Source of the DNA: an uncultured Subdoligranulum sp.
GTDB taxonomy: Bacteria > Bacillota > Clostridia > Oscillospirales > Ruminococcaceae
DNA: 64,000 nucleotides
Direction of reading: 5' to 3'
Assembly: GCA_945830575.1 (NCBI GenBank)
Contig: CALZZE010000014.1
Coordinates: 117-64,116, forward strand
Shown here: piece by piece, positions 52,192 through 63,880 of the stretch
Numbering within the stretch: the first letter of the stretch is position 1
How the letters are laid out: the number at the start of each line of letters is the position of its first letter
Made by a program: the position numbers and the translations under genes
The notes under the pieces: generated by a model
Database searches by the model: none
Told to the model about the DNA's origin: nothing
The model's input: the letters and a program-made list of their open reading frames with translations, nothing else

Positions 52192-52824
52192 TTGCGAAAG
52201 GCAAAAGAAGAGATATACAAGGCCAAAAAGGAACAGATAATGGAGCAGTGCTTCGATTTCTGTGCCGAAAAAGGCCTGGCCAATGTGGGAACACGGTCGA
52301 TAGCAGAGGCCTGCGGTTTCCGGGGCCCGAATCTGTATTGGTATTTCGAGAGCTTCGATGAGCTTATTATCCAGTCCACAGAATACTGCATGAGCAAGGT
52401 GGAGGACGAGTTCATGGAGAAAGCGCCCACCGATGTGGAGAGCCTGTGGCGGTTCATTGATGAGATACCCTACTGGACGGCGGAGAAGCACGGGAAGAAG
52501 TACCGCCTGATGTATCAGGTGTATACCAGCCCGGAATACCGGGAATACGGCAAGAAGTTCTTTGCCGGAGTGGACAAGAGGTACGCCGAATATGCCCGGA
52601 CGCTGGAAGGAAAACTGGGAATCCCCAGAGAAAAGCTGACCTCCCTGATTTTCATACTGATTCGTGCCTGTGTGCATTACGCACTGTTCGAGGACGAGTT
52701 TTATCTCAAGGCGCAGACAGACATGCTGAAAGAGACGCTGAAATTCTGTCTGCAAAAGTACAACCCGGGGGCAAAACCGGGTGTTTCTGGTGAGAATAGG
52801 AACGAAACGGAGGAAACCACATGA
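52192..52824 (+). CDS. TetR/AcrR-family regulator
   Basis: EKGLANVGTRSIAEACG...NLYWYFESFDEL; AAGGAGG RBS with TTG start. Confidence 0.85.
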   Translation: MRKAKEEIYKAKKEQIMEQCFDFCAEKGLANVGTRSIAEACGFRGPNLYWYFESFDELIIQSTEYCMSKVEDEFMEKAPTDVESLWRFIDEIPYWTAEKHGKKYRLMYQVYTSPEYREYGKKFFAGVDKRYAEYARTLEGKLGIPREKLTSLIFILIRACVHYALFEDEFYLKAQTDMLKETLKFCLQKYNPGAKPGVSGENRNETEETT

Positions 52825-55541
52825 AGAAACATTTGTTTGGCCTGCTGCTGGCCTTATTCCTGTCGGTAGGACTGCTGCCGACAGTGGCACTGGCGGAAGG
52901 TGAAATACCTTATCTGGACGAAACCGGAGCACGGCAGAACTGTACCAGTGCCACGGTGGTGACCAGCAGCGATACCACATGGACCAGCGGTTGGTATGTG
53001 GTAAACTCCAATGTGACAATCGGTACCGCAGAGGCCGAGCAGCGTGTCACTGTCGAAGGCGAAGTCCACTTGATTCTGGCGGATGACTGTACCCTTACCG
53101 TTAATGGTGGAATTCAAGTGGAGGGTGATACAAGATACAGTGGCGTAAATGCTTTAACAATCTACGCTCAATCCACAGGCAACAAAATGGGCAAATTGAT
53201 TGCTCAAAATGCGGCGTATGGTTACGCGGCGATTGGCGGCGGTAGGGGGGAACAGGCCGATACTGCTGGCGGCATCATCACTATCAATGGCGGTAATGTA
53301 TCGGCCACTTCAGAAAATCCTTCTGCTGCCATTGGCGGAGGTGGACGTGATGGCGGCGCCGCCGGTGGCAATATCACTATCAACGGAGGAATTGTCACTG
53401 CAACTTCCAGAGGTTTAGGAGCTGGCATTGGCGGAAACGGCGGCCCGGTAAATGCTGGCAGCGGCGGTATCATAACTATCACCGGCGGAATTGTAAGAGC
53501 CGAAAGTAATGAAAGCACTGGTATTGGTGGCGGCACAAAACATCCTTCAACGCTAGGCAATAGCGGAAAGATAACCATTACCGGCGGCACCATCACCGCT
53601 ATAACCAATAGCACAAATGCTCCAGGCATTGGTGGCAACGACCTAAAGGATTCAAACAATTCAATCACAATCGCTAATGGGAAAGCGGTTGTATTTGCAA
53701 CCTCCATTAGCAACAAAGCCAATCAAGATAGTTGGTCCGGCATCATCTTTGAAGGAAACGAAGGCAAGGTTTACGGCTCCTCCGTCACGCCCGTTGTGGA
53801 TTTCACCATTGACAGCGGCAAAAATCTGTGTATCCCGGAAGGTTCTGTACTAAACATCTCCGGCATTTCCGCCACGAATGAGGGCGGCATATATGTGGCC
53901 GGAACCCTGAGCGGCTCTCCGCTGGGAGGCAACCTGTATTATCCGCTGGTGCTGACCAGTGACATAGCAGCTGACAAGGCCTATTCGTATGGCGGCAAGA
54001 CCTACGGCAAGGCGGGAGAAACCATCACTTTGACTGGCACCAATATTCCTGTGGGTAACAAAGCAATATGGAATACCACACCCACCGTGACATTTGCGGG
54101 CGACAGTTTTTCTATGCCGGCCGAAAAGATGACTATTACAGCAACATACGCCCCGAAAACCTATCAGATTACTTACAACACAAACGGAGGCGACAGCGTC
54201 TCTTCTGGAACCTACACCTACGGAACCGGCGCGACCCTCCCGACCAACATCAAGAAAGCCGGGTACACCTTCAAAGGCTGGTATGCAAGTTCCGCTCTCA
54301 CTGGAAACCCGGTCACCACCATCGGGCCAACCGAAACGGGCGACAAGGCTTTCTGGGCAAAATGGAAAGCAAACACCTACACCGTCAAATTCGACACGGA
54401 CGGCGGTTCTGCCATCGCGGATAAGACCATGCAGTGGGAGGATACCGTACTCACAGGTGTCGCCACACCTACCAAAACCGGCTGGGAGTTCCTTGGCTGG
54501 AAGTACAATGATGCCCCAGTCAATGCGAACACCAAGTACAGCGATTTGGGTGTTGCAGATACCGTGCAGTATGTCCAGCTGAAAGCCCAGTGGAAGGATG
54601 TAGCGGCACCCGTCATCTCCGGCGTCGAGAATGGCAAGACCTATTGCCTGACTCGTACCGTGACCGTGTCCGACAATGTGGGCGTCGTGAGAGTTACCGT
54701 GGACGGAACTCCCGTCACTGTTGATAGCAACAATCAGTTTGTTCTGAGCCCGAAAGAGACTCCGCAGGCAATCATTGCCAAGGACGCGGCGGGCAACACC
54801 TCTGCAAAGATGATTGTCACCGTCAACAGTGAGCACAAGGGCGGCACGGCCACCTGTGTAAAGAAAGCTACCTGTATCCATTGTGGAACGCAGTATGGCC
54901 CCCTCGACAGGGACAAACACAACCTTGAGTATATCCCGGCCGAGGGCGCAACAGTGACCGCAACCGGCAACAAGGAATACTGGCATTGCAAGGATTGCGG
55001 GAAATACTTCTCCGACGAGAACGGCATGAACAGTGTTGCACTGAGCGATACCGTCATCTCGAAATTGCCGCCGTCCATTATCGATGGCGCCGGCCAGAGC
55101 CTGACGGCAGGGGAGTGGAAGGAACTTACTTTCCGTTCTAACGCGGCGTTTGCCGACTTCGTCCGTGTGGAGCTTGACGGCCATACTGTAGAGAGCAGCC
55201 GGTATACCGTCAAAGAAGGCAGTACCATTGTGAGTCTGAAAGCCGATTATGTGCGGACACTATCAGCCGGGGAACACACCCTCGGCATCGTGTCCACGAA
55301 CGGCACGGCAACCACTACCTTTACCATCCATGCGTCGGCTGCGTCTGACAATTCGCAGGCTTCTCCGGAAGGAAATGTCAGTGCCTCTGTAAACACCCCT
55401 TCGGCCAACAAGAATCCTTTGAGTGTTCCTCCCACGGGGGACGATAGCCCCTTGGGATTGTGGGTTGTAGCCCTCGTTGTCAGTGGCGTGCTGCTGAATA
55501 TTCTGGGCGTTGTCTTGAAGAAGAGGCGCTCAAAGAAGTAA
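52821..55541 (+). CDS. Sortase-anchored surface protein with Gly-rich repeats and InlB B-repeats
   Basis: Signal peptide; AIGGG/ITINGG repeats; two YNTNGG/FDTDGG...GY.F.GW B-repeats; VPPTG + TM + KKRRSKK. Confidence 0.85.
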   Translation: MKKHLFGLLLALFLSVGLLPTVALAEGEIPYLDETGARQNCTSATVVTSSDTTWTSGWYVVNSNVTIGTAEAEQRVTVEGEVHLILADDCTLTVNGGIQVEGDTRYSGVNALTIYAQSTGNKMGKLIAQNAAYGYAAIGGGRGEQADTAGGIITINGGNVSATSENPSAAIGGGGRDGGAAGGNITINGGIVTATSRGLGAGIGGNGGPVNAGSGGIITITGGIVRAESNESTGIGGGTKHPSTLGNSGKITITGGTITAITNSTNAPGIGGNDLKDSNNSITIANGKAVVFATSISNKANQDSWSGIIFEGNEGKVYGSSVTPVVDFTIDSGKNLCIPEGSVLNISGISATNEGGIYVAGTLSGSPLGGNLYYPLVLTSDIAADKAYSYGGKTYGKAGETITLTGTNIPVGNKAIWNTTPTVTFAGDSFSMPAEKMTITATYAPKTYQITYNTNGGDSVSSGTYTYGTGATLPTNIKKAGYTFKGWYASSALTGNPVTTIGPTETGDKAFWAKWKANTYTVKFDTDGGSAIADKTMQWEDTVLTGVATPTKTGWEFLGWKYNDAPVNANTKYSDLGVADTVQYVQLKAQWKDVAAPVISGVENGKTYCLTRTVTVSDNVGVVRVTVDGTPVTVDSNNQFVLSPKETPQAIIAKDAAGNTSAKMIVTVNSEHKGGTATCVKKATCIHCGTQYGPLDRDKHNLEYIPAEGATVTATGNKEYWHCKDCGKYFSDENGMNSVALSDTVISKLPPSIIDGAGQSLTAGEWKELTFRSNAAFADFVRVELDGHTVESSRYTVKEGSTIVSLKADYVRTLSAGEHTLGIVSTNGTATTTFTIHASAASDNSQASPEGNVSASVNTPSANKNPLSVPPTGDDSPLGLWVVALVVSGVLLNILGVVLKKRRSKK

Positions 55542-55941: not shown

Positions 55942-56229
55942 ATGAACATGAACGGATTACATTACACACTTGCAGGGGAACAGCGGAAACAGATGGCGCA
56001 GGTCATTTCGGAGATCATCCAGGAGAAAGCTGTTTACAAGAGAGTTCCCACCTGTGCTTATCAGATGGGCTCCTTCACCATCAGCAAGGACGGTGTTCTG
56101 AGTTGGACGGAGGACACCGATGCAGAAACGGTCAAGGGTGTGGTTGCCGGACTGCAGATGATGGGCTTCACCACCAAGACCGAACTTCACATTGCAGAGC
56201 AGAATGATTCCTCAGAAAAGGCTACATGA
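55942..56229 (+). pseudogene. Truncated N-terminal fragment of a conserved mobile-element protein (copy 1)
   Basis: GGAGG RBS; ends 2 codons after the repeat boundary; about 90% identical to 63437-63677. Confidence 0.55.
55983..56223 (+). repeat. 241-bp direct repeat, copy 1
   Basis: Manual gap-free alignment to 63437-63677 gives about 22 mismatches. Confidence 0.9.
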
Positions 56230-56437: not shown

Positions 56438-56549
56438 AGGTACTTCCATCGTTTCTTTTGACGGAGCAAGGCAGAACAACAAATCTGTTTGAATTTTGCA
56501 TACCGATTTGATAGAATAAACCCATAAAAAAGATTTGGAGGTGCCTGAT

Positions 56550-57350
56550 ATGCAGGAAGCGGGAACCATCACGATTGTTTCCAACAAGCAGGAAGTTGTG
56601 CTGAACATCAGCCAGATCCTTTATGTACAGATGAAGGGAAATTTTGCCGATATACACATCTCGTGGGAGCTGGTCTATCCAACCAGAATCACCCTCATCG
56701 AGCTGGAAGAGATCCTTGGCGACAATTTCATCAAGGTGAAACGGGGCTGCTTGGTATCCGTATTGGCGATCCACAGCGTCACGGATAAGATCAATCTATG
56801 CAACGGCGAATCGCTGGATTATGTGGTGCGGAATAAAAAAGAGATTCTCGCAAAGCTCCATGCTAAACAGCAGGACATGATCCGCAGCTTCAACGAGGAT
56901 GGGATTCCCGCCACAGAAGATCAGTACCATGCCCATTACCGCCTGTTTGATACCATGCCTTTTGCGTTTGCGGACATCGAGATAGTGTTCGACAGCAGAT
57001 GCCACGCCATCGACTGGGTGTTTCGGTACGGCAATTCCGCCCTGGCGCAGTTGGAAAAGCTGCCATTAGAGAAAATGATCGGCAACTCCTTTGGAAGTCT
57101 GTTTCCCAATATGGATTCCAAATGGCTGCGAAGCTACGAGCGTGCCGCGCTGTTTGGAGAAACCCTGCAGATCATTGACTACAGCCCGGAGATCGACACC
57201 TATCTGGAGGTGATTTGTTTCCCCACCTTCAAGGGTCATTGCGGCTGTATTCTGTTTGATATTTCGCAGATCAAGTCCTTCCGAAAGGCTACCGATACGG
57301 AAAAAGCGCTGGCGATTTATTTTGAAAAGCTGGCATACGGAAATCAATGA
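56550..57350 (+). CDS. LytTR DNA-binding domain + PAS-like domain regulator
   Basis: ILYVQMKG...LEEILGDNFIKVKRGCLVS (LytTR); FRYGNSALAQLEKLPLEKMIGNSF (PAS-like); GGAGGT RBS. Confidence 0.85.
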   Translation: MQEAGTITIVSNKQEVVLNISQILYVQMKGNFADIHISWELVYPTRITLIELEEILGDNFIKVKRGCLVSVLAIHSVTDKINLCNGESLDYVVRNKKEILAKLHAKQQDMIRSFNEDGIPATEDQYHAHYRLFDTMPFAFADIEIVFDSRCHAIDWVFRYGNSALAQLEKLPLEKMIGNSFGSLFPNMDSKWLRSYERAALFGETLQIIDYSPEIDTYLEVICFPTFKGHCGCILFDISQIKSFRKATDTEKALAIYFEKLAYGNQ

Positions 57351-57713
57351 GAAAAGCGGCGCAACAACGTGACAAATCGACATCCGAAAACTGCTGTGCT
57401 CACTGTTATGACTGGCTGACAGAGGGTTGCGGCCCATAAGACAACCTATCTGCCGTGAACGCGGCAGTTTTTTGCTATTTCGTCACGATAATAGAAATAT
57501 TTGTTGCAAATCGCAAGGATATAAAAAGATTCACCAAATCATGGTTGAAAAATGTGCTGAAATATAATAGAATGTAGTTTGGAATGATTTGGATGAACAT
57601 GGAGACTTTTGACATAAGTCCGGCAAGCCTGCCCGGACTCTGAGAAATACCTCATCGGCGCCGTGACCATAACGATGACAAAGTCCCATTATCCATAAGG
57701 AAGGAGAGCGGCT

Positions 57714-58253
57714 ATGAGCGGCAATTTTGAAAGGAAAGAGATAAAGAAAAACTGGCTGATCCCTGTGCTGATGGCCGGCATTGTGATCTGCATCGGGGTG
57801 ACGATCTGGGCGTTGTTTTTCCGACAAAGCGGCGAGGCGTTGGTCCCGGATTACGCGCCCCAGGAAACGGAGCAGAACGCCCGGCCCATCGAAGGCGACG
57901 ACGGCGCCAAGCTGGATGCCCCGGAGGGCGGCGGCGCGATCAGCCTGGAATATGACAGCCATGTCACCGTCGACCTGTCGGATGGCAAAGCCTATTTGAG
58001 CTACGCCAACCCCGGCAAGTCCACCCAGGACATTGTCCTGCGCATTGAAATTCAGGATACAGCGGTGATCCAGTCCGGCACCATCCGACCCGGCAATCAG
58101 GTCAGCGAGCTGGAACTGTTGGATGGCGCGGCTGACAAGCTGCAGGAGGGCGTTTATGACGCCGTGTTCCGCATTTTGAGCTATGACCCCGTCACCGGCG
58201 AGAAAGCCATGGTCGATACTCTGGCAGAGATTACCGTGACGGTACAGCCTTGA
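57714..58253 (+). CDS. Membrane-anchored protein, paralogous to 61449-61958
   Basis: N-terminal TM; YANPGKS..IVLRI...SGTIRPGNQV resembles YLTNPAEN..LKLRV...TGLIKPGQYV. Confidence 0.7.
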   Translation: MSGNFERKEIKKNWLIPVLMAGIVICIGVTIWALFFRQSGEALVPDYAPQETEQNARPIEGDDGAKLDAPEGGGAISLEYDSHVTVDLSDGKAYLSYANPGKSTQDIVLRIEIQDTAVIQSGTIRPGNQVSELELLDGAADKLQEGVYDAVFRILSYDPVTGEKAMVDTLAEITVTVQP

Positions 58254-58299: not shown

Positions 58300-58821
58300 A
58301 TGAAAAAATTTGTTTCCATTTTCCTTACTCTTGCGCTGGTTTTGGCCATGAGCACCACCGCCTTTGCGGCAACGATCGAAAGCAATCCCGATTCCCGGGA
58401 CATCGACGTGAACGCAAAGTATGTGGGCGGTGTTTCCGTTCCCACAAGGTACAGCGTGGATCTGACCTGGGGGGCGATGGAGTTCACCTACACCGTCAGC
58501 GGCACCAAGACCTGGGACCCTGAGACCCACACCTACACCACCAGCACCCAGCCTGTATGGACGGCCAGCGGCAACACCATCACCGTGACAAACCATTCCA
58601 ACACCGACATCACTGCGTCCTTTGCCTTCTCGGCGCTGACTGCCTACAACACCGTGACCGGCAGTTTCTCAAGCGCAAGCCTCACGCTCCCCACGGCGGA
58701 GGGCAAGGCGGTCAACGACGCTGTGCTTACCGGCCAGACCTCGTTCACTCTCGGAGGAACACTTGCAAGCGATATAACGGATTTTACCAACGTCGGTACG
58801 GTCATTGTAACGATTTCGTAA
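58300..58821 (+). CDS. Small secreted protein with a shared beta-rich (WxL-like) domain
   Basis: Signal peptide ending AFA; SVDLTWGAMEFTY...ITVTNHSN...VGTVIVTI. Confidence 0.75.
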   Translation: MKKFVSIFLTLALVLAMSTTAFAATIESNPDSRDIDVNAKYVGGVSVPTRYSVDLTWGAMEFTYTVSGTKTWDPETHTYTTSTQPVWTASGNTITVTNHSNTDITASFAFSALTAYNTVTGSFSSASLTLPTAEGKAVNDAVLTGQTSFTLGGTLASDITDFTNVGTVIVTIS

Positions 58822-58839: not shown

Positions 58840-60162
58840 GTGAAAAGAACAACCAGACGCCTTTTGGCGGTATTTCTGTCCCTGTTTCTGGCGGCAGCCA
58901 TGCCGGTTCAGGCATTCGCCATGCAGATATTTGTGAAGACTCAGACGGGCAAGACCATTACTATCGAAGTGGAGCCGACAGATTCCATAGGAGCCATCAA
59001 AGGAAAAATTTTTGAAAAAGAGGGAATTCTGCCGGAAAACCAACTGCTGATTTTCAACGCAGAGCAGCTGGATGAAAGAAAGACGCTGTCGGATTATAAC
59101 ATTCAAAAGGAATCCACGCTTCATTTGGAGCTGCAGACGACCGACACGGATGTGCGGGAGATCACTATAACGGGTGTCTACCAGGCCGGCACAACAGCGG
59201 ACGAGAAAATCTCCGTGGATATTGTGTGGGATGCGATGGAGTTCACCTACGCCGCCCCATCGCAGGGGACATGGAACCCCGCTGCCCACGCCTATGAAGG
59301 TGCGACAGAAGGCGGCTGGTCGGACAACACCCCCGCCATCACCGTCACCAATCATTCCAACGTTGCGGTGAACGCCACTTTGGCCTTCACCGCTGCTGTT
59401 GACGGCGTAGTCGGTGCCTTCACCGAAGCCAGCGGCACTGAAAATGACAACATTCTGAACCTTGCCACCGCCGAGGGGACGGAGGTTGCCAATGCTCCCA
59501 CCGCAACTGCAAACTTCGGCATCAGCGGTACGGCAATCGACGCGACCAAGACGCTCGGCACCATCACCGTGACCATCAAAAATGTCATCGACACCTTTGC
59601 AGAGCTGCAGGCGGCGGTCAACGCCGGCGGCACCGTCAAGCTGGGCGGGAATATCACTTTAGGGGATGAAACCCTTGTTGTGGGCAGCAGCGTCCCTGTG
59701 ATCCTTGACCTGAACGGATACACGCTGACTTCCAATAGCAATGCGCATATCCAAGTTCAGCCGGGTGTCATCTGCACCGTCAAGAACGGCACCGTTACGA
59801 ACACTTACAGCGATGGTGAAGCAGTACATAACTTCGGTACCCTTACCGTTCAAAACTGCACGCTGAATGCGAATAACTACTTTCCTTTGTATAACTGTTG
59901 TACTGCCACCGTGACGGACAGCACGCTGAACGGAAAAATCATCGGAAATTCGATTTGCAACGATCATGCGTACTCCGATACTGTCACCCTGACCCTCAGC
60001 GGAACCGTGCGTATGGATGGCGGTATTTATAACAATTACAACACATCCGTCGTTACCGTCCTCCCCGGTACCTACAACTTTGCCCCCGCTTCCTATGTGG
60101 ATGCCAACACCCACACCGTCACCGACAACGGCAACGGCACATGGACGGTCGCTGCGAAATAA
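58840..60162 (+). CDS. Secreted protein: signal peptide + eukaryote-like ubiquitin + shared domain + beta-helix-like tail
   Basis: [19 protein letters not shown]...[17 protein letters not shown] at 58921-59133, right after AFA; remainder paralogous to 60193-61314. Confidence 0.9.
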
Positions 60163-61314
60163 GTGCGGCGATAATTGAAAGGAGTACATACCGTGAAAAA
60201 ATTCCTGTCTATTCTTCTTGCCTTTGTTATGGCGCTGTCCCTGTCCGTCACAGCCTTTGCGGCGGAAAATAACGGCACTTCCGGCACCGATATCACTGTA
60301 AACGGCACCTACATTCCCGGCACGTCCTCGGCGGATGAGACAATCTCCGTAGATATTGCGTGGGAGGCAATGAACTTCACCTACACCGCCCCGTCGCAGG
60401 GAACATGGAACCCCGCCACCCACGCTTATGAAGGGCAGACGGCAGGCGGCTGGTCGGACAACACCCCCGCCATCACCGTCACTAATCACTCCAATGTCGC
60501 GGTGAACGCCACTCTTGCTTTCACCGCAGATGTTACCGGCGTAGTCGGTACCTTCACCGAAACCAGCGGCACTGAAAACGACAGCGTTCTTGAGCTTGCC
60601 ACAGCAGATGGAACAACGGTTGAGAACGCACCCACCGCTACTGCCAACTTCGGCATCAGCGGTGCGGCAATCGATGCGACCCAGACACTCGGCACCATCA
60701 CCGTGACCATTGCAAAGGCTGGTGAATCCGGCGGCGTAACCACCTTTGAGGCACTGCAGGCGGCGGTCAACAACGGCGGCACTGTCAAGCTGGGCGGGGA
60801 TATCACTTTGGGGAATGATGTAATACTTGCTGTGAGCAGCAGCGTTCCTGTGATCCTTGACCTGAACGGATACACGCTGACTTCCAATAGCAATGCGCCA
60901 ATCCAAGTTCAGCGGGATGTCATCTGCACAATCAAGAACGGTACTGTTACGAATACCGCCGATAGGATGGAAGCAATAAGTAACTTCGGTACCCTTACTG
61001 TTCAAAACTGCACGCTGACTGCGAATGACTCCTATCCTTTGTATAACAACTGCATTGCTACCGTGACGGACAGTACGCTGAACGGAAATTACGACGGAAA
61101 TTCGATTTGCAACCAACAAGTGTACTCCGATACCGTCACCTTGACACTCAGCGGAACCGTGAACATGGCAGGTGGTATTTACAACCGCTATGCCGCTTCT
61201 GTCGTTACCGTCCTCCCCGGCACCTATAACTTTGACCCCACCTCTTATGTGGACGCCGACGCCTACTCCGTCACCGACCACGGCAACAGCACATGGACTG
61301 TTACTGCGAAATAA
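59197..61314 (+). repeat. Tandem duplication of about 1 kb (about 59197-60162 and 60331-61314)
   Basis: Long near-identical DNA tracts, e.g. GGCTGGTCGGACAACACCCCCGCCATCACCGTCAC and GATCCTTGACCTGAACGGATACACGCTGACTTCCAATAGCAATGCG in both copies. Confidence 0.85.
60193..61314 (+). CDS. Secreted paralog lacking the ubiquitin domain
   Basis: AAAGGAG RBS with GTG start; signal peptide ending AFA; same two domains as 58840-60162. Confidence 0.85.
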   Translation: MKKFLSILLAFVMALSLSVTAFAAENNGTSGTDITVNGTYIPGTSSADETISVDIAWEAMNFTYTAPSQGTWNPATHAYEGQTAGGWSDNTPAITVTNHSNVAVNATLAFTADVTGVVGTFTETSGTENDSVLELATADGTTVENAPTATANFGISGAAIDATQTLGTITVTIAKAGESGGVTTFEALQAAVNNGGTVKLGGDITLGNDVILAVSSSVPVILDLNGYTLTSNSNAPIQVQRDVICTIKNGTVTNTADRMEAISNFGTLTVQNCTLTANDSYPLYNNCIATVTDSTLNGNYDGNSICNQQVYSDTVTLTLSGTVNMAGGIYNRYAASVVTVLPGTYNFDPTSYVDADAYSVTDHGNSTWTVTAK

Positions 61315-61448
61315 ACCAGTTTCATAGCCAACAGCCGGAAGGGGCCGGAAGGACAGCCCCTTCCCACGGCTGTCCTGTTTGATCTGACGGCATCGGCTCC
61401 GTCCGGCGCCGCCACATGAGACAGGACAACCCAATAAGGAGACGCAGA

Positions 61449-61958
61449 ATGAACAAAAAACCGAAAACAAATAAAACCGTTCCCGTTCTCTGCGGGATGT
61501 TTGCGATTGTACTGGCTGTCATGGTCGCCGCCCTCTTTTTTGGCGGAAAGCAGGACACAGCGGGATTTACCCCGCCGCCCTTTGACGCCGCCGCCGTAGC
61601 AGGTGTGCCGGAGGTGCCGGAAAGCCTTGGCTACATCTCTCCGTATCAGGAAGGTATGGGCTACCGTTTTTCGGTATGCGGTAATGTGGTGATGGAGGGC
61701 AGCGCCGCTGCCGTCTACCTGACCAACCCCGCCGAAAACGAAGTGTGGCTGAAGCTGCGGGTGCTGGATGAAAAGGGCAATACCTTAGGCGAAACCGGTC
61801 TGATCAAGCCCGGCCAATATGTGAAGGATGTAACCCTGACCGGAAACCTCCCGGCAGACACGGAAATCAAGCTGAAAATCATGGGCTATGAGCCGGAAAC
61901 GTATTTCAGCGCAGGATCAGCAATCCTGAATACCTCCATAGGAGATGTATCGCAATGA
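61449..61958 (+). CDS. Membrane-anchored protein, paralogous to 57714-58253
   Basis: AAGGAG RBS; N-terminal TM; shared C-terminal motif. Confidence 0.7.
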   Translation: MNKKPKTNKTVPVLCGMFAIVLAVMVAALFFGGKQDTAGFTPPPFDAAAVAGVPEVPESLGYISPYQEGMGYRFSVCGNVVMEGSAAAVYLTNPAENEVWLKLRVLDEKGNTLGETGLIKPGQYVKDVTLTGNLPADTEIKLKIMGYEPETYFSAGSAILNTSIGDVSQ

Positions 61959-63067
61959 AAAGAATCATGGCATGGATGATGACAATGATCGTTGCCCTGT
62001 CTGCTTGCGTCACTGCCTTTGCGGCGGAATCCAATCTGGGCGGTGAAAACCGGCAGACCGACATTGGCGTATTCGCCCGGTATCATGACAACACACAATG
62101 GAATGCGGTTCCTGTGGATGATAACGGTCGGGGAACCACCACATTGCCCGGCGGAACGGTGATTACCGTCAGCGGTGCTTGGAAACCAGGCTATCAGCTT
62201 GTCATCGACCCCATCACGGAAACCGATGCTAAAAACTGGATCAGCGGTATTCTGGACGGCAAAGCGGCGAATCTCACCCCGCTGCACATCTATTTCATTG
62301 ACAGCAGCGGAAACACCATAGCGGCAGCCGGCGTGACCATCACCATGAAGCCGCAGTCGCAGCTGGCCGAACCCGTGGCATACTCCCTGACCAGTGAAGG
62401 GCAGACTTCCGGTCTGACTGTCACCGCACAGGACGGCGCTTTCACCTTTTCCACAGACGGCAGTCCGTATTATGTTCTCGGTGAGCGGGTAACGACACCC
62501 GCTGCCAAAACCTACGCCGTACAGGGAACGGTCAAGAGGAACGGTCAGCCGGTGGCGGGCATTACCATCGAGCTTCACAGTACGCCGAAAACCGATGTGA
62601 CCGACAGCAGCGGCAGATTTTCCTTCCGCGATGTGGAGTGCGGCAGGCACTCTCTGACGGCAATTGACAATGGAAATATCGTCGGTTATGTGGAGTTCGT
62701 GCTGACAGAGGGCAGCACGGCAAACCTTTCTCTTTCGAATGGGATCTATATAGTGACCACCAACATCCATGAGATTGGCATTCACCTGACGCTGAACCTG
62801 GCAGACAATGATACCATGAGCATGGCAAGTGTGACAGGCATACAAGCCGGTGGAAATCCTGATGGCGGAAACTCAGGAGATCCCGCAGGCGAAGCCGCTT
62901 TTGGTATACAAGCCGGTGGAAATCCAGATGGCGGAAACAAGGACAACACGAACAGTCCACAGACGGGCGATGACACAAACCTGCTGCTCTGGCTGGTATG
63001 GATGCTCATTGCGTTTGCAGGATTTGTGGCAGTGTTCGTTGATAGCCGAAAGAAAAGAACAGGCTGA
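61955..63067 (+). CDS. Sortase-anchored protein with carboxypeptidase-regulatory-like domain
   Basis: Signal peptide; VQGTVKRNGQPVAG...TDSSGRFSF; SPQTG + TM + RKKR. Confidence 0.8.
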   Translation: MKRIMAWMMTMIVALSACVTAFAAESNLGGENRQTDIGVFARYHDNTQWNAVPVDDNGRGTTTLPGGTVITVSGAWKPGYQLVIDPITETDAKNWISGILDGKAANLTPLHIYFIDSSGNTIAAAGVTITMKPQSQLAEPVAYSLTSEGQTSGLTVTAQDGAFTFSTDGSPYYVLGERVTTPAAKTYAVQGTVKRNGQPVAGITIELHSTPKTDVTDSSGRFSFRDVECGRHSLTAIDNGNIVGYVEFVLTEGSTANLSLSNGIYIVTTNIHEIGIHLTLNLADNDTMSMASVTGIQAGGNPDGGNSGDPAGEAAFGIQAGGNPDGGNKDNTNSPQTGDDTNLLLWLVWMLIAFAGFVAVFVDSRKKRTG

Positions 63068-63192: not shown

Positions 63193-63436
63193 AGGGTGGT
63201 TTTGTATAAGTAATACTCAAGTTCCAGTTAGTCTATTTGAGTCTTGACAAGTGAAGAAGAAAGAGATATTGACCCAGGCGCGTTGATATCTCTTTTTTCG
63301 TGAAAGAAAAGACTACTCTCCAATTGCCCATAAAATGAAGAGTAGTCTATTCCAATGCCAGGATGGAGGGGGTGCATTTCCTGTGTATAGGGGGTGCAAT
63401 CGTTTCATTGTATCAAAATGGTGGTTACGATGAACT

Positions 63437-63677
63437 GCGGAAACAGATGGCACAGGTCATTTCGGAGATCATACAGGAGAAGGTCGTTTACAAGAGGGTT
63501 CCTACCTGTGCTTATCAGATTGGCTCCTTCACCATCAGCAAGGACGGTGTTCTGAGTTGGCCGGAGGACACCGATGCAGAAACGGTCAAGGGCGTGGTTG
63601 CCGGATTGCAGATGATGGGCTTTAATGCTAAGACTGAACTTCGTATTGCAGAGCAGACCGATTCCACAGAAAAGGCT
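63437..63677 (+). repeat. 241-bp direct repeat, copy 2 (gene fragment)
   Basis: Matches 55983-56223; lacks the RBS and start present in copy 1. Confidence 0.9.
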
Positions 63678-63848
63678 GCACCGGATGAAACCCCGGAGGA
63701 AGAAATCAAGGATTCGGCACCAGCATATCCAGATCCACGATCACTGCTTCTTTGCGTGCGTTTTTTCCCCACTTTTCCATACAGAACACCCCCGTTTCCT
63801 CTATTATACAGGAAACAGGGGCGTTTGAATAGGTTTTTTGACAAGCTG

Positions 63849-63880
63849 TGACCCGCCCATCCTTCAAGATGGGCGGGTCA
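63849..63880 (-). terminator. 13-bp-stem hairpin, probable terminator of the minus-strand gene at the right edge
   Basis: TGACCCGCCCATC-CTTCAA-GATGGGCGGGTCA. Confidence 0.55.

Follow-up and report, generated by a model that had tools for sequence, protein, structure and literature searches.

Domain layout and ubiquitin fold

The 64,000-nucleotide stretch of an uncultured Subdoligranulum sp. assembly analyzed here (GCA_945830575.1, contig CALZZE010000014.1; hereafter, the window) carries on its forward strand, at 58840..60162, a gene for a 440-residue protein in which a ubiquitin domain directly follows the signal peptide. The gene starts with GTG at 58840, and the open reading frame (ORF) list and raw sequence place an AGGAGG ribosome-binding site 7 nt 5' of this codon. 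Residues 1-27 (58840..58920) are arranged as in a Sec signal peptide, charged, then hydrophobic, then AxA, with a predicted signal peptidase I site, read from the sequence, between AFA and MQ. Ubiquitin Met1 is residue 28 (58921), directly behind AFA, and the mature protein would begin MQIFVK. The ubiquitin domain itself, identified by Pfam, alignment, structural model and tree, occupies residues 28-99 (58921..59136), is of Entamoeba type and has no Gly-Gly; it is followed by a flexible linker (residues 100-123, 59137..59208), where the predicted local distance difference test (pLDDT) score of the AlphaFold2 model falls below 30. Two further domains, here called the body, complete the mature protein of 413 residues: a beta-sandwich (59209..59580) with the motif W-x-x-M-x-F-T-Y ... 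TVTNHSN, which is common to two neighboring secreted proteins (a 173-residue protein and a tandem paralog, below), and a small right-handed beta-helix (59581..60159; pLDDT ~90).

That ubiquitin begins at its own Met1 behind a signal peptide ending AFA was proposed in the initial annotation of the window and is borne out by sequence and fold alike. Pfam PF00240 matches residues 30-99 with an E-value of 2.5e-21 and 75.6 bits (cut-off 25.4), and residues 28-99 fold as ubiquitin in the AlphaFold2 model (pLDDT 80-89), aligning in Foldseek with solved ubiquitins at a template modeling (TM) score of ~0.9, a root mean square deviation of 1.2-1.5 Å and 68% identity; with the full model as query, Foldseek returned matches to ubiquitins only. 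An ungapped comparison with human ubiquitin over residues 1-72 gives 49 identities in 72 positions (68%), where 49/71 had been counted initially. The changes relative to the human protein include L8Q, R42L, K48E and V70E, with I44 and K63 kept and LRGG lacking, all of them as first described and all present in the alignment. Also kept are K6, K11, K27, K29 and K33, and stretches of the bacterial head, one of them 15 residues long, are exactly those of human ubiquitin, a feature that bears on the question of antigenic mimicry posed by the Bacteroides ubiquitin homologue BfUbb (PMC6194340). Where human ubiquitin ends in VLRLRGG, the bacterial domain has ELQTTDTD and reads on in frame into the body. 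Because there is no Gly-Gly, and because the domain is fused to the body through a linker of ~25 residues and is predicted to be extracellular, the head is not conjugatable, as had been suggested at the outset. No match to E1, E2, E3 or deubiquitinase families was found in the seven proteins of the surrounding gene cassette, a search that was not made genome-wide.

Relatives, authenticity and selection

More than 100 full-length relatives of 438-450 residues, at 77-100% identity and all with PF00240, were found in a large protein index built from ENA, Logan and NCBI assemblies, and the nearest relative of the window protein is 93% identical to it. One relative (P0047) is indexed in 43 collection blocks, on contigs of up to 2.25 Mb, with one record labeled pig gut metagenome. 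The conservation figures given here for the family derive from an alignment of 113 cluster representatives from independent assemblies. Within this family the canonical receptor patch of ubiquitin, L8-I44-H68-V70, has become Q8-I44-H68-E70, accompanied by L42 and E48. The TTDT tail is fixed, as are T20, L37, N40 and E70 (100% each), while F31 (97%), Q8 (96%), E48 (90%) and L42 (73%) are the other derived residues.

Across the 113 representatives the ubiquitin domain has a mean pairwise identity of 93.6%; linker, beta-sandwich and beta-helix lie at 85-87% and the signal peptide at 80%. Pairwise Nei-Gojobori estimates from seven DNA sequences give a ratio of nonsynonymous to synonymous divergence (dN/dS) of 0.07-0.33 for the ubiquitin segment (0.73 in one near-identical pair) at dS values of 0.09-0.45, and of 0.31-0.91 for the beta-helix. 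Given the low dN/dS and the highest conservation within the protein, the ubiquitin domain is maintained in bacteria by purifying selection. Synonymous divergence also differs strongly between domains within single gene pairs: the window gene and L101 have dS values of 0.25 for ubiquitin and 0.05 for the beta-helix, and L015 and L103 values of 0.25 and 0.03, respectively; the alleles are recombinant mosaics.

An artifactual origin of the fusion, by chimeric assembly or eukaryotic contamination, has a negligible probability. Such contamination does exist among prokaryotic genomes, three ubiquitin matches of a class-wide scan (below) having been rejected as eukaryotic polyubiquitin with tandem repeats in which RGG runs into MQIF (L045, Streptomyces; L072, Hyphobacterium; L089, Hwanghaeella), and the ubiquitin segment of the window gene shows a dip in GC content (43.5%, versus 53-60% elsewhere in the gene; third-position GC 0.54 versus 0.62-0.76). 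However, the contaminants lie on contigs of 347-391 bp, whereas the junctions between signal peptide, ubiquitin, linker and body recur in all 113 cluster representatives and on contigs of up to 2.25 Mb. Furthermore, the domain has diverged along with its carriers under purifying selection, and it lies, in frame, behind a bacterial signal peptide and ribosome-binding site. As a sign of foreign origin the GC dip is weak, since it concerns just 72 codons that are rich in Lys, Ile and Glu.

Origin of the ubiquitin domain

Compared by phmmer with the single-ubiquitin chains of the PDB, the window domain scores best with 4GSW_A (102.6 bits, versus 94 bits for human ubiquitin), and the less diverged ubiquitin of a gut relative (L023) shows the same preference (146.7 versus 134 bits). 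The 4GSW structure is that of Entamoeba histolytica ubiquitin (PMC8588831). The Entamoeba reference sequence used for comparison of individual residues was accepted because it reproduces exactly both 4GSW_A bit scores obtained with the two queries; it differs from human ubiquitin at eight sites (N20, S22, D24, A25, I26, E32, E52 and K54). The window domain is identical to the Entamoeba type at 55 of 72 positions, versus 49 for the human type, and has six of the eight Entamoeba-specific residues (S22, A25, I26, E32, E52 and K54), with the human state at none of the eight sites. Among the matches listed, all eight Entamoeba states occur in 15 gut Clostridia loci and seven of them in four more, two Bacteroidales metagenome-assembled genomes (MAGs) have six, and the canonical ubiquitin type is found in environmental Proteobacteria, Verrucomicrobia, Paenibacillaceae and archaea. 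In a quick maximum-likelihood tree the window family falls into a 30-row clade with Entamoeba ubiquitin (Shimodaira-Hasegawa approximate likelihood-ratio test, 88), and the other eukaryotic reference ubiquitins interleave with other bacterial groups; with 72 columns the tree carries little weight, and the derived residues held in common are the stronger evidence of origin.

The ubiquitin domain was acquired from a eukaryote, and the donor was apparently an Entamoeba-like gut amoeba, 'Entamoeba-type' denoting the closest among the eukaryotic ubiquitins tested, with other gut protists outside the sampling. The horizontal acquisition first proposed is in this sense retained, with Entamoeba histolytica rather than human or consensus ubiquitin as the nearest type tested. 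Searches of the large index with the signal peptide plus ubiquitin, and with the L023 ubiquitin, were swamped by partial di- and polyubiquitins and returned neither a donor nor stand-alone bacterial relatives. Although it shares the fold of Entamoeba ubiquitin, the bacterial domain differs from it in lacking LRGG, in carrying K48E, L8Q, R42L and V70E, and in being, as predicted, extracellular, permanently fused and removed from any E1/E2/E3 context.

The body family and its N-terminal slot

Directly downstream, at 60193..61314 on the forward strand, lies a tandem paralog of 373 residues that is 72% identical to the body and has no ubiquitin; its real start is probably GTG 60193, whereas the automatic ORF list begins at TTG 60175. 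The absence of the domain noted initially is clear-cut: in the alignment the signal peptide of the paralog is joined to the body without interruption, and ~70 residues are cleanly missing at the ubiquitin position. The 173-residue protein encoded upstream also aligns with the body of the ubiquitin-headed protein. The body has no Pfam or NCBIfam family match. In Foldseek, the model of the paralog gave weak matches to FimA-type pilins (E 4e-3, TM 0.19-0.36) and, at E >0.1, to beta-helix enzymes, while the beta-helix has a weak sub-threshold match to the carbohydrate-binding beta-helix Cthe_2159 (E 0.012).

With the ubiquitin-less paralog as query, exhaustive phmmer searching (50% clustering) defined the body family, a large group of secreted clostridial proteins with 2158 representatives at E <=1e-3, 156 of them at E <=1e-30, with a ubiquitin-headed protein (P0110) as the top match. 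In most members the body directly follows the signal peptide. An insert of ~70-250 residues separates the two in 21 of the best 150 (of 2158), and these inserts comprise at least 15 ubiquitins, four CBM26 domains, one faintly ubiquitin-like segment (P0439) and one of another kind (P0435). The CBM26 starch-binding heads (P0379, P0382, P0407 and P0408) have E-values of 5e-10 to 8e-13, above the cut-off. At one end of the range, the ubiquitin insert of P0440 (61/72) is close to the Entamoeba type, and at the other that of P0397 (37/72) has diverged strongly; no ubiquitin head on this body family is nearer to human than to Entamoeba ubiquitin. Because relatives hold either CBM26 or ubiquitin at this position, the N-terminus of the scaffold is a modular slot, able to accept a proven ligand-binding domain. 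The presence of CBM26 in place of ubiquitin also hints at a role of the scaffold family in adhesion to particles or polymers.

When 16 of the body family's ubiquitin heads are aligned, conservation extends over the core, the segment TL.DY.IQKE.TL and the side of the helix (EVEP.DSI...K.KI.EK.GI), whereas the 33 of 72 positions that vary include all five of the patch (8, 42, 44, 68 and 70). A hypergeometric estimate puts the chance of this at ~0.017, uncorrected for the greater variability of surface positions. Judged from these alignments, the canonical receptor patch appears to be the most variable face across the ubiquitin-headed subfamilies, while being frozen within the subfamily of the window. 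Such a pattern fits a binding face that is re-specified between subfamilies; it fits mimicry of a canonical ubiquitin signal poorly, and an inert cap only moderately.

As a cap, ubiquitin would be a fast-folding, protease-resistant and solubilizing N-terminal module that aids export, folding or stability and has no ligand. Ubiquitin is indeed stable and is used as a solubility tag, which together with the flexible linker and the lack of predicted docking agrees with this role, and since most body relatives work headless, the head must be dispensable for basic body function. On the other hand, surface residues that the fold does not need (K6, K11, K27, Q62, K63 and E64) are invariant in the family, the dN/dS of ubiquitin is below that of the body, in relatives a ligand-binding CBM26 occupies the same slot, and the rebuilt patch, with its specific Q8/E70 pair, shows fixation and not drift. 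A passive cap is accordingly rated quite unlikely; the folding module first offered as one possible role fits less well with the selection pattern and the CBM26 swap.

The beta-sandwich domain was also observed, at 38-42% identity to residues 110-261, in two unannotated records from human feces (MT838868.1 and MT837052.1, 'Bacteriophage sp.'); phage-like elements may be another vehicle of the family, unless these contigs are misclassified.

The gene cassette and its mobile context

The ubiquitin-headed gene belongs to an operon-like run of genes, all on the forward strand, with a regulator gene ahead of it. The product of the latter (56535..57350) has a LytTR DNA-binding domain at residues 21-87 and no receiver domain, and it looks like a one-component LytTR regulator; its C-terminal 180 residues appear PAS-like by eye and have no Pfam match. 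A terminator-like hairpin (57450-57467) precedes a promoter-like site, TTGAAA-17-TAGAAT (57545..57573), which is a consensus match only. The first gene of the run, at a conserved position, encodes a 179-residue protein with an N-terminal transmembrane helix (57714..58253), and the second the 173-residue secreted protein, which consists of the beta-sandwich domain alone (58300..58821). Behind the ubiquitin-headed protein and its tandem paralog follow a protein of ~170-180 residues, also with an N-terminal transmembrane helix (61416..61958), and a 370-residue wall-anchor candidate (61955..63067) with a signal peptide, a CarboxypepD_reg domain, an SPQTG motif, a transmembrane helix and an RKKR tail. 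The SPQTG motif is presumably of the (S/P)PXTG type of Clostridioides difficile sortase B. A tandem 66-nt repeat within the same gene (62837-62938) encodes GIQAGGNPDGGN. None of the seven cassette proteins matches an NCBIfam family.

On all contigs inspected the order of genes is the same, namely LytTR regulator, 179-residue transmembrane protein, 173-residue secreted protein and ubiquitin-headed protein, then one or two ubiquitin-less paralogs, a ~170-residue transmembrane protein and a protein of 218-370 residues. The regulator gene heads the cassette in every case, and the six genes behind it encode two transmembrane proteins, three secreted paralogs and one SPQTG protein. The flanks vary and include genes for a relaxase, MobC/NikA, a type IV secretion system coupling protein, TnpV, Mob_Pre, a serine recombinase and AbiEi. 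Because the flanks differ and carry mobile-element genes, the cassette is taken to be cargo of integrative mobile elements. In addition, a genome of the same genus (G110) is without the ubiquitin-headed gene, and a ubiquitin match of any kind is found in only 7 of 201 genomes of the same bacterial family, which mark the gene as accessory. The carriers come from pig-gut and other metagenome assemblies, with labels that suggest gut cohorts.

In the window the cassette is bracketed by two copies of a 249-nt direct repeat (55978..56226 and 63432..63680, both forward; 90% identical), each within a small ORF (55942-56229, 95 residues; 63363-63851) belonging to a repeated gene family; the repeats may have been left behind by recombination or insertion of the cassette. 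Just upstream (52821-55541) lies the gene for a 906-residue protein with Flg_new and Beta_helix_3 repeats, which is syntenic with the cassette in L101 and L102, the closest relatives, and a 783-residue Beta_helix_3 protein is encoded inside the cassette in L107 and L108.

Two known types of surface locus resemble this arrangement. The WxL/Csc loci of lactobacilli and enterococci likewise combine secreted paralogs sharing one common domain with small transmembrane proteins and an LPXTG-type wall protein. The shared domain of the present cassette differs in its motif (WxxMxFTY ... TVTNHSN), and a WxL locus was rejected, there being no match to PF13731, DUF916 or DUF3324 even at E up to 10 and no NCBIfam match. 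A sortase-assembled pilus was likewise rejected, as only the 370-residue protein has a sorting signal (SPQTG), no sortase match was found in the seven cassette proteins and the FimA-like fold match is weak.

The cassette also bears on whether the head acts as an antibacterial effector, that is, as a toxin module directed against competing bacteria. In favor of this, the cassette is mobile, accessory and missing from G110, and LytTR regulators often control bacteriocin loci; the Gram-positive Clostridia lineage of the carrier, on the other hand, has no outer-membrane SusCD. The precedent for such an effector is provided by BfUbb and BoUbb, secreted ubiquitin homologues without a usable Gly-Gly that kill related Bacteroides (PMC5705921; PMC11467351). 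BfUbb is a free 76-residue toxin, is imported by ButCD (SusCD) and targets a Gram-negative periplasmic peptidyl-prolyl isomerase (PMC11467351); it is reported to be 63% identical to human ubiquitin, with viral ubiquitins as its nearest relatives (PMC3352274; PMC5705921; PMC11467351). The window protein resembles BfUbb and BoUbb in that its ubiquitin is eukaryote-derived, non-conjugatable and located directly behind a signal peptide in a gut bacterium, at a similar identity to the human protein (68% versus 63%). As far as the descriptions in these papers permit comparison, it differs in being of Entamoeba type and the N-terminal domain of a 413-residue Gram-positive protein, whereas the Bacteroides proteins stand alone at ~76 residues in a Gram-negative host, and in belonging to a structural cassette with no visible toxin/immunity logic. 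The parallel with BfUbb that was drawn initially extends no further than a secreted bacterial ubiquitin without Gly-Gly. Against an effector, the window protein is a fusion encoded among structural paralogs, no site that could release the ubiquitin domain follows it and an immunity gene is not obvious, whereas BfUbb is imported as a free protein (PMC11467351). An antibacterial function is considered very improbable.

Ubiquitin as a putative binding head

On balance, the non-conjugatable ubiquitin is probably displayed as the binding head of an extracellular protein. The protein would be exported by the Sec pathway and its signal peptide cleaved, leaving the ubiquitin fold as the first 72 mature residues. 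The cassette would build an extracellular assembly from its two transmembrane proteins, three secreted paralogs and SPQTG wall-anchored protein, on which ubiquitin would form a distal binding head, in a slot that is otherwise empty or occupied by CBM26. It is the starch-binding CBM26 held by this slot in relatives that leads to ubiquitin being read as a binding head. The partner would probably not be a canonical eukaryotic ubiquitin receptor, an expectation that follows from the receptor patch having been rebuilt and then frozen. The sequence data show the domain identity, the export signal, the missing conjugation tail, the flexible linker, purifying selection, the swapping of heads in the slot and a conserved, mobile cassette; that the protein resides at the surface, that its head binds and what kind of partner it has are inferred. 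The surface display proposed initially is plausible: the export signal is present, while anchors are encoded not in the gene itself but in its neighbors (the two transmembrane proteins and the SPQTG protein).

Several observations weigh against a displayed binding head. Inspection of the sequence and Pfam revealed no sorting signal, transmembrane helix, SLH domain or beta-barrel in the ubiquitin-headed protein, which ends ...GTWTVAAK; without an anchor in the same chain, it may just be released from the cell. Since the body matches no characterized family, gene context is the sole basis for speaking of a surface assembly. In the AlphaFold2 model of the full protein the beta-sandwich is poorly modeled (pLDDT 33-70) and no interdomain contacts are predicted. 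Three substitutions, E24G, G47A and G53R, are private to the window allele (each 1/113) and may mean a slight relaxation in this copy. The intolerance of a compact fold to change could partly explain the conservation of ubiquitin, and CBM26 demonstrates that the slot can hold a binding module, which is no proof of binding by ubiquitin.

A more specific extension of the binding-head interpretation, which is possible but doubtful, is that an amoebal predator was the source of a ubiquitin that gut Clostridia turned into a natural binder scaffold, in which the core and helix face were frozen and the beta-sheet face (positions 8, 42, 44, 68 and 70) was re-tailored in each subfamily toward another extracellular target, with display in the slot where relatives have CBM26. 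Engineered ubiquitin binders (Affilin molecules and ubiquitin variants) follow the same design of a stable scaffold with an altered beta-sheet face, and Affilin chains are among the PDB matches; these are man-made, whereas a natural equivalent would be deduced only from the variability at the five positions. If the extension is true, nature has its own counterpart of the Affilin binders, and the heads represent a new type of bacterial adhesin head that mobile elements have disseminated in human and pig guts.

Few eukaryotic proteins are as conserved as ubiquitin, and in the searchable literature the Bacteroides proteins BfUbb and BoUbb are treated as the bacterial exception. No paper on a fusion of signal peptide, ubiquitin and surface protein, but only reports on these two, was found in that literature, subscription journals lying outside its coverage. 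The use predicted here is a different one: as an extracellular domain, ubiquitin would be built permanently into a surface-type protein of a Gram-positive bacterium, and its Entamoeba-type origin is traceable. Because CBM26 shares the slot and the receptor patch is rebuilt, the ligand of a bacterial surface ubiquitin becomes a testable question.

The wider prokaryotic class and possible eukaryote-facing mimicry

A scan of one genome per prokaryotic species yielded at least 508 confirmed ubiquitin stretches, so that at least 508 species genomes encode such a domain; the best 80 stretches were parsed. Of the 74 parsed matches with at least 15 in-frame upstream residues, 70 have a hydrophobic, signal-peptide-like run ending directly before Met1, and position -1 is A in 63/74 and A, G or S in 71/74, with A, V, S or T at position -3 in 68/74. 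From the hydrophobic run and these residues, a signal peptidase site directly before Met1 is deduced for nearly all of them. Behind ubiquitin, Pfam scans of 57 such proteins identified surface modules, namely an autotransporter beta-domain (8), SLH (6), Flg_new (6), fn3 (6) and IPTL-CTERM (3), and further C-terminal partners in the class are Big_2, cadherin-like, SpaA and choline-binding repeats. Most members keep L8-I44-H68-V70 ('LIHV') intact. A cultured carrier is Ruminococcus albus 7, with a gene on plasmid NC_014824.1 annotated 'ubiquitin family protein', and one public annotation of a relative reads 'ubiquitin-like protein'.

The window family shares with this class the signal peptidase site before Met1, the location of ubiquitin at the mature N-terminus of an extracellular protein and the lack, in most members, of a functional Gly-Gly. 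In contrast to the family, most of the class is near-canonical (85-97% identity, LIHV intact) and has its own C-terminal anchor, in the form of an autotransporter, SLH, sortase signal or IPTL-CTERM; the window family is more diverged, with a rebuilt patch and no anchor. It is thus an unusually diverged class member, and three features give it specific value: its Entamoeba-type origin, a head slot in which ubiquitin and CBM26 are swapped, and the rebuilding of the receptor patch.

The intact patch of most class members is hard to explain without a eukaryotic partner, and it speaks for a role in which exposed ubiquitin engages the ubiquitin recognition of the host or of a bacterivorous protist such as Entamoeba, which could alter uptake, phagosome fate or immune signaling. 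In agreement with this, the donor type, Entamoeba, is a bacteria-feeding amoeba of the gut, and the 15-residue stretch shared with human ubiquitin recalls the antigenic mimicry documented for BfUbb (PMC6194340). In the window family, however, the I44 patch is rebuilt and fixed, and it varies across the ubiquitin-headed subfamilies with the same body; most ubiquitin-binding domains depend on L8, I44 and V70. Moreover, known ubiquitin receptors are cytosolic, whereas the head is predicted to be extracellular. The host mimicry put forward initially is weakened in this lineage by the fixed change to Q8-I44-H68-E70 with L42 and E48, and a eukaryote-facing function of the window protein is regarded as unlikely.

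Several members depart from the usual layout. In the same bacterial family as the window genome, L009 (G011) is a 685-residue ORF, encoding a protein of ~640 residues that ends in an SPKTG signal of sortase type, in which ubiquitin follows an N-terminal domain of ~140 residues, an exception to the rule of Met1 right behind the signal peptide. The soil Gammaproteobacteria Dyella sp. OK004 (L092) and Dyella humi (L065) encode a signal peptide and a near-perfect ubiquitin and nothing more; L092 is identical to human ubiquitin at 71 of residues 1-72 and ends LRGG-stop, and would be a free secreted ubiquitin with Gly-Gly. Near-canonical ubiquitin domains also occur in four archaeal MAGs, following a signal peptide in Methanothrix/Methanotrichaceae proteins of 340 to >1100 residues (L081 and L088) and lying inside proteins, with no signal-peptide-like run before them, in Methanobacteriota (L075 and L100).

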